A stretch of 43,036 bases of DNA from Shigella phage SFN6B: the sequence record KY684082; one strand, 5' to 3'. Shown here one piece after another: positions 246 to 20,199 of this stretch (position 1 is its first letter; each line of letters starts with the position of its first letter). The notes below the pieces were generated by a model that was not told the origin of the DNA, made no database searches, and worked only from the letters and a program-made list of their open reading frames with translations. The position numbers were made by a program, and so were the translations under genes.

Positions 246-256
246 GGGGGGGGGCC
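246..256. repeat. Poly-G tract (11 G) followed by GGCCGTCTAG-type short direct repeats
   Basis: Read directly: gagggggggggggccgtctagacgtctagatggccagctgtgggccgtctaggg. Confidence 0.6.
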
Positions 257-390
257 GTCTAGACGTCTAGATGGCCAGCTGTGGGCCGTCTAGGGCGGAC
301 CAGGAGGGCCGTAGAAGCTCGCTGCGCGGCCTAATGGCTATTGCTAGTGCTATCCTATGCCTATCGCTATAAGCTCCTTGTAGGGCCGCT

Positions 391-433
391 GGGAAGCTCT
401 GGGAGGCACTAGGGAGGCACTAGGGAGGCACTA
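391..433. repeat. Tandem repeat, 11-bp unit GGGAGGCACTA x3 plus one degenerate copy
   Basis: Read directly: gggaagctct gggaggcacta gggaggcacta gggaggcacta. Confidence 0.85.
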
Positions 434-482
434 AGTGGGCCGTGGGGACGCGCTCCGTCTTGCTTATTTTGTGCGCCTATTG

Positions 483-545
483 CGGGCTTCCATTGTGGGC
501 TTCCAGTGCCCGCATTGTGGGGCCATAGTGGGGGCCATAGTGGGC
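483..545. repeat. Cluster of short direct repeats (GGGCTTCCA x2, CATTGTGGG x2, GGCCATAGTGG x2)
   Basis: Read directly from the sequence; overlaps the probably spurious ORF 435..671. Confidence 0.75.
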
Positions 546-561
546 CGCCCAGTGCGCCGTG

Positions 562-590
562 GTGCTATCGCTAGTGCTATCGCTAGTGCT
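562..590. repeat. Tandem repeat, 12-bp unit GTGCTATCGCTA x2.4
   Basis: Read directly: gtgctatcgcta gtgctatcgcta gtgct; related GTGCTA(T/C)CCCTAG copies near 664-680 and 961-990. Confidence 0.8.
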
Positions 591-717
591 TTACATTGTG
601 CCGATTATATGCTACTCTGCGCGCTCCCCACTGAGGCGCACTTCCACTACCCACCACACGCCGTCACCTAGTGCTATCCCTTCACCCTTACTTTCATTCG
701 AAAGCTAATAAGAAATG

Positions 718-734
718 ATGTTACAGGAGTAGGA
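718..734 (+). promoter_or_regulatory. Candidate phage-RNAP promoter, copy 1 of exact 17-mer ATGTTACAGGAGTAGGA (left non-coding end)
   Basis: Exact 17-mer shared with 20183..20199 and 32788..32804; ends in ...GAGTA|GGAG, resembling the -1/+1 region of T7-family promoters. Confidence 0.4.
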
Positions 735-890
735 GGGTTTTAGGGCACTACATACATACTACTTACTACTACTCACTAGTATCCCCTAGTAATGCCCTAT
801 ATTACGACCGTAGGGAGTAAGCATTACCTACACAGTAACTGCATTGCTCCGTGTCCTTTCACTTCGTACGGACACTACGCACTGCTTTAT

Positions 891-940
891 GTAGTATTAG
901 ATAGTGTTAGGTAGTATTGGTTAGTATTGGTTAGTGGTGG
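891..940. repeat. Degenerate tandem repeat, ~10-bp unit (GTAGTATTAG / GGTTAGTATT) x5
   Basis: Read directly: gtagtattag atagtgttag gtagtattgg ttagtattgg ttagtggtgg. Confidence 0.75.
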
Positions 941-1201
941 CGAGCAGTGGCTACAGCTAGTAGCTGCATAGTGCTACCCCTAGTGCTATCCCTAGAATAG
1001 AAGCATTGGCTAAGTATTTGCCCCGCTTACCCCTTTTGCTCTCAGTGATAAAAGTTTAAAAAAAAGTGCTTGCTTCTTTTGGTTAGTTAGCGCTATAGTT
1101 CAATCACCGGGAGGCACTGAGGCGCTGAACGGGGTAGAGTCGGGAGACTCCACCGGATTAAAGCTAGATAGTGTGAAGGGTTAGATACTCGATAAAAAGA
1201 G

Positions 1202-1230: not shown

Positions 1231-1575
1231 GAATCCCGAAGTAAGCAGTTAGGTAGTACACAGAAACAAACGCTTGACAAGTTCAGATTCACCTAGTAAC
1301 TTAGATAGCGAACAACGTAGTAAGCTGATTTGCGGGGAGGCCCAGTACCTTGACTGGTACGATGACGACTGAGCCTATACAATCAGTGTAGTAAAGAAGT
1401 AACGTCAAGAGCTGAGACGACAAACGGCTGGGGCGCTGAGGCGCTGCCCCTTAAAAGAATAGCGTCGAGACCTGAGCCACAGGTTCCACGGTTGTGCAGT
1501 GGGTAACAAGGTGAAAGATTAGCGTCCAGCTAGATACTGCTAGGGCGTTAATCTTTGACTTTGATGGAGGACACA

Positions 1576-1791
1576 ATGAAATATCGTGAGAAGTTAGCCC
1601 AACAATTCGCCGGACTTGAGAAGTTATCTGGTCCGGAATTGAGAAAACGCCGGGACGCGTTGAATCGTGCCGGGTATATGCGGATGAAACAATCTGCTAC
1701 ATTCAGCACGAACGTACGCGGTAAGACCAAAACAAGGGGAAGTAGCAAGGCCCCGCAAGGCTGGTACACTGCCGGGCAGTTCGGACGCTAA
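1576..1791 (+). CDS. Hypothetical early protein (basic, ~71 aa)
   Basis: ORF track 1555..1791; in-frame ATG at 1576 with GGAGGA a few nt upstream; first ORF after the non-coding leader. Confidence 0.45.
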   Translation: MKYREKLAQQFAGLEKLSGPELRKRRDALNRAGYMRMKQSATFSTNVRGKTKTRGSSKAPQGWYTAGQFGR

Positions 1792-1797
1792 TTACAG

Positions 1798-1828
1798 CCT
1801 ATAGCATCCTACGGGGTGCTATGTGAAG
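1798..1828 (+). promoter_or_regulatory. Conserved inverted-repeat element, copy 1 (CCTATAGCATCC-tacg-GGGTGCTATGTGAAG)
   Basis: 9-bp stem with 4-nt loop; same motif family at 2646..2675 and 9606..9637; ~39 bp upstream of the gene starting at 1867. Confidence 0.5.
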
Positions 1829-1866
1829 TAATTCGATAAGTAAACAACCAATCAAAGAGGTGTATC

Positions 1867-2451
1867 ATGACTAATATGACTAATGCAACCAAAAAAGTAT
1901 TCAAATTAACCGCCGCCGGCAATATCCGTAAAGCACTGCGCGATGTAGTAGAAGCCAAGCGTAATATCACTATCAGCGCTCTGTTCCACGGCCTGATTAG
2001 TAGCAACGTTTCTTGGGCGACGGATATGCAGCGCAGTGATGCCGCTGACTTTGATATGGTGCTGCGTACACTGCTGCCCATCAAGTTCAACAAGGAATCT
2101 GGCAAGTACGAGTTCCACGCTAAAAAGTGCTATGCGTCGGCTGAGAAGTTGGGTATTGAGCTGGATACTATGCGTCTGGACTATAAACAAGCTGACAAGC
2201 AAGGCCGTGAAGAGATTGTTGCCAGCTTCTACAGCGCTTGTATGGCCCTGTACAACGCTGAAGCGGATAAGGTGAAGAATGATGCCTTAGATGCCGATGC
2301 CGTGCGTCTGCAAGCTCTGGGGCGCGTTAAAAACGCCATCAAGAAAGCTAAGGAAACTGGTGTAAGCGATTCCGATCTGGTGAGTATGCTCATCAGTCAG
2401 GGTGTTGATGTGCGTGCTGTACTGGATGCAACTTTGAAGGTGGCGGCATGA
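1867..2451 (+). CDS. Hypothetical early protein (194 aa)
   Basis: ORF track; ATG preceded by AAAGAGG; no recognisable catalytic motif. Confidence 0.7.
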   Translation: MTNMTNATKKVFKLTAAGNIRKALRDVVEAKRNITISALFHGLISSNVSWATDMQRSDAADFDMVLRTLLPIKFNKESGKYEFHAKKCYASAEKLGIELDTMRLDYKQADKQGREEIVASFYSACMALYNAEADKVKNDALDADAVRLQALGRVKNAIKKAKETGVSDSDLVSMLISQGVDVRAVLDATLKVAA

Positions 2452-2525
2452 GCATGGAACTTGTAGGACTCATTCTAGTGATTGCGCTACTGGTCATAGT
2501 AATAGCAGAGTGCAGACGCTTATGA
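2448..2525 (+). CDS. Putative 25-aa hydrophobic mini-protein (MSMELVGLILVIALLVIVIAECRRL)
   Basis: Not in ORF track (too short); ATG overlaps the upstream stop in an ATGA arrangement; almost entirely a single TM-like helix. Confidence 0.3.
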   Translation: MSMELVGLILVIALLVIVIAECRRL

Positions 2526-2645
2526 TTATCAAGTGCTGGGCCTTATGCCCAGCGGCCAACGATACCGACGCCTTTGACGTGCCAACCCGGGGGCGCCATA
2601 ACAAGTGGTGCTACGAAGGTTTAGGGGAGTACGTATAGTGTCAAG

Positions 2646-2675
2646 CCTATAGCGCCTTAGTGGGCGCTATGTGAA
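2646..2675 (+). promoter_or_regulatory. Conserved inverted-repeat element, copy 2 (CCTATAGCGCC-ttagtg-GGCGCTATGTGAA)
   Basis: Perfect 8-bp stem ATAGCGCC/GGCGCTAT; ~25 bp upstream of the ATG at 2700. Confidence 0.5.
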
Positions 2676-2699
2676 TGCCACTAATAAGTGAGGTTTCAA

Positions 2700-2921
2700 A
2701 TGAAAGCAAAGATAATCCATCCGGGGCACGTACTCTGGCCCGTGTGGTGCAACCAAGTGCACCCAGAGTATAATTACACTGTGATGATATTCTCTGACCT
2801 AGATACTGATCAGGAATTCCCTTTAGACCTCGTTGATACTTATACCGAAACGGCGGCGCGCACTCTGCTGGACGCCGTGAATCTAGGTGTTATTACCGAC
2901 TGGAAGCAACTTTATGGCTAG
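2700..2921 (+). CDS. Hypothetical early protein (73 aa)
   Basis: ORF track 2688..2921; ATG at 2700 has GAGG upstream. Confidence 0.5.
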   Translation: MKAKIIHPGHVLWPVWCNQVHPEYNYTVMIFSDLDTDQEFPLDLVDTYTETAARTLLDAVNLGVITDWKQLYG

Positions 2922-3102
2922 TAAGTACGGGAAGAATCCTGAAACGCTGCTGATGCGTAGGCAGCAACCAACGATCGAGGGACTGGCGCGGGAGTACAGC
3001 GCGAAGGCAGCACTGCGTCAGCACTATGAGAAACAAGCGAAGCGCCTGGGTATGACCCTGCGCGGTTACTGTCAACGTTTTAATGTACGAGGTGTAGTAT
3101 GA
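2914..3102 (+). CDS. Hypothetical early protein (62 aa)
   Basis: ORF track 2887..3102 trimmed to the first ATG after the upstream gene (MASKYGKN...). Confidence 0.45.
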   Translation: MASKYGKNPETLLMRRQQPTIEGLAREYSAKAALRQHYEKQAKRLGMTLRGYCQRFNVRGVV

Positions 3103-3296
3103 ATGAACTAGTTAAGTATGATTTATACAGACGCCGGAATGGGTTACTGTACCGGGTGTCACTGCATGGCGCACTGTACGGGCCCGCTGAGTTTTACGCC
3201 ACCGGTTGTTGGGTACAATCACACCTAACAATTTTTGGTGTAATAACAGGTAGTGCGAGCACGCTAGTGGCCCGCAACGTAGTATTCAAGGATTAA
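3099..3296 (+). CDS. Hypothetical early protein (65 aa)
   Basis: ORF track; ATGA overlap with the upstream gene. Confidence 0.45.
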   Translation: MNELVKYDLYRRRNGLLYRVSLHGALYGPAEFYATGCWVQSHLTIFGVITGSASTLVARNVVFKD

Positions 3297-20175: not shown

Positions 20176-20182
20176 AAATTTA

Positions 20183-20199
20183 ATGTTACAGGAGTAGGA
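20183..20199 (+). promoter_or_regulatory. Candidate phage-RNAP promoter, copy 2 of exact 17-mer ATGTTACAGGAGTAGGA
   Basis: Sits between the RNAP stop and the first downstream gene, abutting its ATG. Confidence 0.45.

Follow-up and report, generated by a model that had tools for sequence, protein, structure and literature searches.

The window analysed here, i.e. the whole 43,036-nucleotide stretch of Shigella phage SFN6B (KY684082), represents a Drulisvirus (KP34-like, Autographiviridae, Slopekvirinae), a podophage of the Klebsiella/E. coli group. In its leftmost gene block a very short open reading frame (ORF) encoding a hydrophobic peptide, hereafter the mini-ORF, is inserted between two genes that we name gp2 and gp3. 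The elements of this junction are as follows (lengths of proteins in amino acids, aa):

1867..2451, plus strand: gp2, 194 aa, PHROG 5277 at 5e-103, mostly helical
2436..2443, plus strand: Shine-Dalgarno (SD)-like sequence GAAGGTGG, within the gp2 3' end, 4 nt 5' of the mini-ORF ATG (-12..-5)
2448..2525, plus strand: mini-ORF (type A1), ATG start, 25 codons, TGA stop, peptide MSMELVGLILVIALLVIVIAECRRL
2522..2638, plus strand: gp3, 38 aa, MIIKCWALCPAANDTDAFDVPTRGRHNKWCYEGLGEYV, PHROG 10968 at 1.5e-27, homologue of SU552A_03

The initial annotation described the mini-ORF exactly (ATG at 2448, 25 codons, TGA ending at 2525), and the ATGA overlap of its start with the stop codon of gp2 is borne out at positions 2448-2451. 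A second ATGA was overlooked there: the TGA of the mini-ORF overlaps the ATG of gp3 at positions 2522-2525 (cgcttATGAtt). Each end of the mini-ORF is thus coupled to a neighbouring gene, and gp2, the mini-ORF and gp3 constitute three cistrons in three different frames, joined by two ATGA overlaps. An ATGA overlap together with an SD sequence in the upstream gene is the signature of termination-reinitiation coupling, which has been validated for E. coli gene pairs (PMC6728339). With both overlaps and the SD-like sequence inside gp2, the mini-ORF has the anatomy expected of such a cistron, as the initial annotation had proposed for its 5' side.

Three types of mini-ORF were distinguished at this position in related phages: A1 (the type of the window), A2 (a divergent homologue) and B (an unrelated transmembrane (TM) mini-ORF). 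The SD is kept as [GA]AAGG[TC]GG across the A1, A2 and B loci. The gp3 gene of the A1 phages lacks an SD and has lost 5 N-terminal codons (MIIK... versus MIYKVPVIK...); it is probably translated by ribosomes that terminate on the mini-ORF and reinitiate.

The encoded peptide is dominated by an uninterrupted hydrophobic core of 16 residues (L5-A20), located between E4 and E21, and has a grand average of hydropathy (GRAVY) of 2.01, which agrees with the single hydrophobic helix noted earlier. It is the only 20-40-codon ATG-ORF with a GRAVY >= 2.0 in the six frames of the window, while 200 second-order Markov simulations of the window gave a mean of 0.035 such ORFs per genome, and it is therefore not a chance feature. 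The best 17-residue segment sums to about -3 kcal/mol of Hessa-type apparent free energy, an approximate value obtained with a scale unweighted by position. Given its length of <=50 aa (25 codons here and 22-25 in relatives), its one predicted bilayer-spanning hydrophobic segment and the selection described below, the peptide falls into the class of small single-TM proteins, and its composition makes it likely to be embedded in the membrane. The basic C-terminus pointed out in the initial annotation is present in the window variant, whose tail is Cys-Arg-Arg-Leu, but it is not a feature of the family, as the ORF of phage Hope stops at codon 22 and A2 ends with GEYL.

A 2-kb query around the mini-ORF matched 242 phage records, nearly all of them Klebsiella/Escherichia Drulisvirus. 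The region of the window from the RNA polymerase (RNAP) gene to the capsid gene is ~96.5-96.8% identical to that of the Escherichia phages EC22.5-2, Minorna and AV102 and, to the same degree, to that of the Klebsiella phages Hope and KPV811. The A1 type was searched for by sensitive blastn with a 91-nt segment against GenBank phages and by scans with back-translated degenerate DNA patterns. It was found in five distinct GenBank phages (phiBO1E, Hope, vB_Kpn_K15PH90, JKP2 and vB_Kpn_K1PH164C1), to which the pattern scans added one further IMG/VR contig (an uncultivated viral genome, UViG), giving seven genomes with the window. The scans of viral contigs returned only phiBO1E and one UViG, the scan of 185,579 prokaryotic genomes gave no A1 match, and that of metagenomes gave two matches only, both due to chance and in unrelated contexts. 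Additional gp2-bearing contigs yielded no more A1 copies, and exact-sequence look-ups of gp2 and gp3 of the window found neither on record.

The ATG within the ATGA overlap and the reading frame are kept in 7/7 A1 sequences, and the 25 codons with the second ATGA in 6/7; in Hope, an AGA to TGA change at codon 23 leaves a 22-codon ORF, which ends 5 nt before the gp3 ATG. The sequences form two subclades (window, Hope, phiBO1E and K15PH90 versus JKP2, K1PH164C1 and the UViG), between which the DNA is ~77% and the peptides ~70-80% identical. Variable columns of the A1 alignment are distributed over the three codon positions as 10/2/14. Pooled between the subclades, the proportion of changed synonymous sites (pS) is 0.70, i.e. 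saturated, and that of non-synonymous sites (pN) is 0.11, which gives a ratio of 0.15; for gp2 of the same genome pairs the ratio is 0.03-0.12. Between the window and JKP2, 14 of 17.8 synonymous sites have changed versus 6 of 48.2 non-synonymous ones (Fisher p = 1e-6). Residues S2, L5-L10, L15, I19 and E21 are invariant within A1, and S2, E4/D4, L15 and E21 across the whole A family.

This signal belongs to one frame, as the other five frames of the A1 segment have pN/pS values of 0.36-8.6, all worse than that of frame 0. An antisense or alternative-frame gene was considered and rejected: frames +2 and antisense-1 are free of stops in all seven sequences, but their pN/pS values are 8.6 and 0.36, and they stay open because of the NTN codons of the mini-ORF. 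Likewise, the segment shows no unusual RNA structure (fold z +0.79) and no Rfam family matches positions 1500-3200 on either strand at E <= 1, and its reading as an RNA element was rejected, although an undescribed small RNA (sRNA) may exist there.

The sequence 3' of the gp2 stop was surveyed in 37 IMG/VR loci and in the GenBank loci. The following forms of the junction were observed:

commonest form, most loci: ATGA-coupled 43-aa gp3 (MIYKVPVIKWWALCPAAND...)
long gp3 form, several loci: 74-aa gp3 with an N-terminal Cys4 zinc-ribbon-like extension
empty form, loci L025 and L045: no gene, the hairpin (see below) comes directly after gp2
A1 form, the window, 5 GenBank phages and 1 further IMG/VR contig: mini-ORF, then the shortened gp3 (MIIK...)
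A2 form, 7 GenBank phages and 2 UViGs: MS[VI]EFMVIITAVVLLFVVVGEYL, 23-24 codons, ATGA-coupled to gp2, no gp3
B form, 6 distinct GenBank phages and 1 UViG: MILDIDAVLIIFMLVIAMIAACIR, 24 codons

A2 and A1 are identical at 12 of 23 ungapped positions, a score equalled by 0 of 100,000 composition-preserving permutations, and A1 and A2 therefore make one family. The final residues of A2 and its stop context are those of gp3, as if a deletion had joined an A-type ORF to the gp3 3' end. The similarity of B to A1 and A2 is not significant (p = 0.22 and 0.84, respectively). Moreover, B is followed by a duplicated GGTGGCGGCATGATTT junction, restoring an SD and a start codon for gp3, and GGTGGCRGCATGATTT is duplicated at the B insertion in the same junction; given this duplication and the lack of significant similarity to A, B is an independent insertion. 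The B copies of locus L048 and of phage KpV48 differ at 4 nucleotides, all of them synonymous. KpV48 (locus L049, KX237514.1 2154-2309) carries B and A2 in tandem, both unannotated: B is ATGA-coupled to gp2 and is followed by GGTGG-N4-ATG and an A2 copy starting with MGIEF. The KpV48 record places a 'promoter' feature inside the B ORF.

At least one mini-ORF occurs in ~17 distinct GenBank phages of the 242 matching records and is annotated in none of them, so that the label 'unannotated' holds for the relatives as well, and a collection of 15 billion proteins contains none of ten peptide variants. Conservation thus has two faces: the mini-ORF is missing from ~93% of the relatives, but those that carry it maintain its frame under purifying selection. 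Among the closest relatives of the window A1 occurs only in Hope, and Minorna lacks it, which indicates that the cassette moves by recombination instead of following the descent of the backbone. The Buco-like, more divergent clade has neither a mini-ORF nor gp3, and no paralogue or donor of the mini-ORF was found elsewhere in the window. The pS of the mini-ORF is 0.06 for the window versus phiBO1E and 0.12 versus Hope, while that of the adjacent gp2 is 0.52 and 0.45. This hints at a recent horizontal transfer of the cassette, followed by mostly amino-acid-changing differences, a pattern that in 78 nt is not statistically secure.

Taken together, the coding conservation in one frame, the kept start and coupling signals, the conserved helix, the survival of the ORF where gp3 is absent and the independent analogous ORF argue for a real gene with a selected peptide, and we are highly confident that the mini-ORF is protein-coding. 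What is notable is that one coupling junction is used repeatedly by different micro-TM genes.

Sequence homologues of gp2 were found only in Drulisvirus-like phages. Its AF2 model (predicted local distance difference test score, pLDDT, 86) contains a small beta-hairpin (72-83) and a 53-residue helix (111-163), followed by short C-terminal helices. No PDB fold matched this model, and its structural matches in BFVD were uncharacterised podophage proteins only. These structural relatives come from phiKMV-like podophages: Aeromonas PS, Pectobacterium MA2, Vibrio VpV262 and Pantoea LIMElight. It is a widespread early protein whose fold offers no functional lead. The gp3 gene is plastic, with 38-, 43- and 73/74-aa forms (window 2522-2638, L002 1436-1567 and L004 983-1204), the long ones bearing an N-terminal CxxC...C...C zinc-ribbon-like module. 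In Minorna and an identical UViG there is an in-frame TGA at gp3 codon 11; the gene is frameshifted in L014 and L037 and deleted in the A2 phages. Decay of the gene in several lineages is one possibility, readthrough of the Minorna TGA another.

Further features of the window that bear on the expression of the mini-ORF and on its possible role are:

716..731, plus strand: KP34-type strong phage-RNAP promoter TGATGTTACAGGAGTA, upstream of the early block, exact consensus match
1798..1827, plus strand: palindromic 30-nt motif, upstream copy, 10-bp hairpin, -17.3 kcal/mol, z -4.0
2646..2675, plus strand: palindromic 30-nt motif, downstream copy, hairpin, -16.8 kcal/mol, z -2.35
39975-41203: complete lysis cassette with u-spanin, holin (83 aa) and endolysin

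The two hairpins bracket the gp2/mini-ORF/gp3 unit. Their motif (CCTATAGCrycyTAnnGGGyGCTATGTGAA) has two copies in the window, with none expected by chance, and a compensatory A:U to G:C exchange distinguishes the upstream from the downstream copy, in SU552A as well as in the window. In SU552A the motif is annotated as a MEME-discovered promoter; this label is contradicted by the finding that the motif does not drive transcription by the KP34 RNAP in vitro (Lu et al. 2019, PMC6834552). The observations suggest an element of RNA processing or stability, perhaps a site of the RNase III type, and not a promoter. In JKP2 and K1PH164C1 (L006/L007), as well as in L024, L027, L053 and L056, another palindrome, TTTCTCATAGGGTATTCTAACGAGTACCCTAGAGGGCAATCATGCC with its variants, lies downstream of gp2/gp3, taking the place of the CCTATAGCG-type hairpin at the same position. 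The boundary element thus appears to be exchangeable, like the cassette.

The leftmost block, and with it the mini-ORF, corresponds to the early region in the KP34 literature, in which the strong promoter was also defined experimentally as T(A/G)ATGTTACAGGAGTA (PMC6834552). Exact copies of this consensus lie on the plus strand of the window at 716-731, 20181-20196 and 32786-32801 (3 versus 0.04 expected); two such sites were reported for KP34 itself. The 'early' position given in the initial annotation stands on genome position and this literature, but with a promoter of this kind upstream of the block the phage RNAP may also transcribe it, and expression is not necessarily early in the sense of host RNAP only. 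The non-coding left end (256-995, plus strand) contains a cluster of short tandem repeats, 11 nt x3 (401-433), 12 nt x2.4 (562-590) and 10-nt arrays (747-778 and 892-935), with which the phage promoter at 716-731 and a sigma70-like promoter at 1202-1230 are interspersed. Such repeat/promoter clusters are typical of T7-like left ends.

Based on these observations, we suggest that the mini-ORF is an accessory gene for a single-TM micropeptide which modulates a host inner-membrane protein, and we give this explanation as a whole an even chance of being correct. The mini-ORF would be expressed from the hairpin-bounded three-cistron unit of the leftmost block. Its translation would be started by ribosomes that end gp2 at the ATGA or that are recruited by GAAGGTGG, and ribosomes ending the mini-ORF at the second ATGA would restart on gp3. 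The peptide would then insert into the host inner membrane; in the window variant the acidic N-terminus would face outwards and the Arg-Arg C-terminus inwards, a topology that follows the positive-inside rule. There it may modulate an inner-membrane protein by packing against it, more likely one of the host than one of the phage. As a dispensable and strain-variable gene, the mini-ORF would resemble a moron. A -1 frameshift that would fuse the helix to either neighbour, gp2 or gp3, was rejected: no X_XXY_YYZ slippery site precedes either overlap, and every type of mini-ORF, including the free-standing A2 of KpV48, has its own ATG and SD.

No known family accommodates the peptide. The PHROG search gave no match, Pfam none above the cutoff (only a sub-threshold ABC-3 match) and the PDB profile search only noise at E = 9.1; in the NCBIfam scan (E <= 10) neither A1 nor A2 nor B was assigned to a family. 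The peptide is thus a new family within a known functional class, that of small single-TM proteins of bacteria and phages, which is not a homology family. It shares with the small membrane proteins (<=50 aa) of E. coli the size, one helix, polar ends, the lack of a catalytic domain and the fact of having been missed by annotation. Members of this class include AcrZ, KdpF, MgtS and CydX. Bacterial small membrane proteins bind larger membrane proteins or alter membrane properties (reviewed in PMC12648545); e.g. YohP, a single-TM protein of 27 aa, partially dissipates the membrane potential of E. coli (bioRxiv 10.1101/2025.05.06.652344). However, the mini-ORF lies in an early polycistronic unit of a virulent phage and is not a stress-regulated host gene, and its peptide shows no sequence similarity to these proteins in the NCBIfam and Pfam scans. 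The Entero67K set, i.e. predicted enterobacterial intergenic microproteins of 15-70 codons under purifying selection, mostly hydrophobic and without a Pfam domain (PMC11188072), was obtained by the same logic of looking for purifying selection on tiny ORFs, although its members are bacterial and intergenic, whereas the mini-ORF belongs to a phage and overlaps its neighbours at both its start and its stop codon.

The type I toxins (Ibs, ShoB, TisB, Ldr and Hok/Gef families; PMC2887945) are also hydrophobic single-helix inner-membrane peptides of Enterobacteriaceae, 18-50 aa long. Membership in this group is ruled out, since there is no match to a curated model, no antisense RNA family was detected and the genetic context is different: the mini-ORF is coupled to an upstream gene and not repressed by an sRNA, and it belongs to a lytic-phage operon, not to a chromosomal or plasmid toxin-antitoxin locus. 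Holins, pinholins and single-gene lysis peptides resemble the peptide as small phage membrane proteins with TM helices and charged termini. Nevertheless, a lysis or holin role is unlikely: the mini-ORF is located in the early block, 37 kb from a lysis cassette that already provides u-spanin, holin and endolysin, its product is far shorter than the 83-aa holin, and mini-ORFs occur in only ~7% of the relatives (A1 in 5, A2 in 7 and B in 6 of the 242, GenBank phages only), all of which are lytic. The functional model implied by the initial annotation is represented by Gp11 of Staphylococcus phage PhiNM1, an early-region small membrane protein that binds the host MurG and DivIC (PMC11237401). Gp11 comes from another phage group and host and has no sequence relationship to the Drulisvirus peptide, which is barely more than a TM helix. 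This precedent, together with the harm that early depolarisation would do to the phage, favours a mode of action through a protein partner, which we propose by analogy and tentatively, as something short of probable.

Several observations weigh against the suggested explanation. The hydrophobic core spans only ~16 residues, and the conserved G7xxxA11 motif is V11 in the window and missing in A2 and B. The proposed topology would apply to A1 only, because Hope and A2 have no basic tail. The estimate of selection is based on seven sequences in two deep clades, and within the window subclade (window, Hope and phiBO1E) non-synonymous differences outnumber synonymous ones (Nd 4-7 versus Sd 1-2), all of them exchanging one hydrophobic residue for another. 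Counts this tiny are too few to separate relaxed from diversifying selection; the pattern suggests that 'any greasy helix will do' and suits this better than a tight specific interface. A gp2 3' junction that tolerates and translates any insert could also explain the presence of three divergent or unrelated peptides. Finally, the only toxicity/functional screen in the genus, performed for fHe-Kpn01, covered annotated hypothetical proteins only (PMC7291057).

The exchange of hydrophobic residues and the unrelated peptides in one slot keep alive a mechanism at the level of the lipid bilayer, in which the peptide, like YohP or the type I toxins, would cause partial depolarisation or a change in fluidity instead of acting on a specific protein. 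The outcome would be a shut-down of host metabolism, the exclusion of superinfecting phages or an adjustment of the time of lysis. In size and composition it is like depolarising peptides such as the 27-aa YohP, and the free hydrophobic swaps (pN/pS >= 1 within the window subclade), as well as the occupation of the slot by either A or B, suit a demand for composition more than for a precise interface. However, early depolarisation of the host would reduce the energy for phage replication, the peptide has no homology to curated toxin families, holin, endolysin and u-spanin genes are already present, and the residues invariant in the A family (S2, E4/D4, L15 and E21) point beyond bulk hydrophobicity; we consider this explanation rather unlikely. 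It is somewhat more doubtful still that the partner is internal to the phage, the peptide being a membrane tether or subunit of gp2 (or gp3) that coupling would supply in a fixed ratio and that would bring this soluble early protein to the inner membrane. Without exception, the three mini-ORF types are coupled directly to the gp2 3' end, such coupling typically gives stoichiometric co-production (PMC6728339), and the C-terminal helices of the gp2 model could dock a partner. Yet gp2 occurs without a mini-ORF in ~93% of the relatives, in L025 and L045 even with nothing downstream, and so works without the peptide; the A2 phages, which lack gp3, show that gp3 is not an obligate partner, and it is unlikely that peptides as different as A and B fit one gp2 surface.

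Two further readings dispense with a function of the peptide. In one, the mini-ORF is a spacer cistron that tunes reinitiation on gp3, with the peptide as a by-product. The ATGA at both ends, the loss of the SD and of 5 N-terminal codons by gp3 of the A1 phages and the Hope ORF, which is 3 codons shorter and still just 5 nt from the gp3 ATG, would all be accounted for in this way. Such a relay needs no amino-acid sequence, however, and the observed pN/pS of 0.15 and maintained hydrophobicity speak against it, as do the persistence of A2 in 7 GenBank phages where gp3 is deleted, the SD re-created for gp3 by B, which makes a relay superfluous there, and the direct coupling of gp3 to gp2 in most relatives; we regard it as very unlikely. 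In the other, the ORF is a non-functional frame in a recombination scar, conserved by recent shared ancestry. It is true that only a minority of relatives carry a mini-ORF, that the junction is a recombination hotspot, that NTN-rich sequence keeps two other frames open automatically and that the few changes in the closest subclade are mostly non-synonymous. On the other hand, synonymous sites are saturated between the A1 subclades while peptide identity remains at ~70-80% (Fisher p = 1e-6). Start codon, frame and stop/ATG overlap have all been preserved, chance would give only 0.035 such ORFs per genome, and TM mini-ORFs recur independently at the same site. These comparative data largely refute the chance reading, to which we assign a minimal probability.

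A bolder version of the host-directed reading may be added, although we think it improbable. The junction might be a 'plug-in socket', in which the ATGA and SD guarantee the translation of any short cassette, and single-helix peptides would have been captured or have evolved de novo repeatedly (A1/A2, B and B with A2) as interchangeable host-specific weapons. If this were true, the peptides might, for example, block an abortive-infection or defence effector embedded in the membrane, or a host inner-membrane protein used by competing phages. Therapeutic Klebsiella phages would then possess a class of host-range or anti-defence determinants of very small size that has not been seen before.

That annotation overlooks small TM proteins is already well known and is to be expected in phages, and the function proposed here is an inferred one. 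The locus is nevertheless a compact natural example of a coupling junction hosting the birth or capture of micro-genes, and natural presence, absence and swap variants of the 78-nt mini-ORF exist. Drulisviruses belong to the phages that are most often isolated and proposed for therapy against multidrug-resistant Klebsiella, while their early genes are nearly all 'hypothetical'. Their annotations systematically miss real membrane micropeptide genes of 22-25 codons, which vary between phages that are otherwise ~97% identical. Strain-variable early genes typically govern host takeover, exclusion or defence evasion, and such micropeptides could explain differences in host range and efficacy beyond the annotated gene content.

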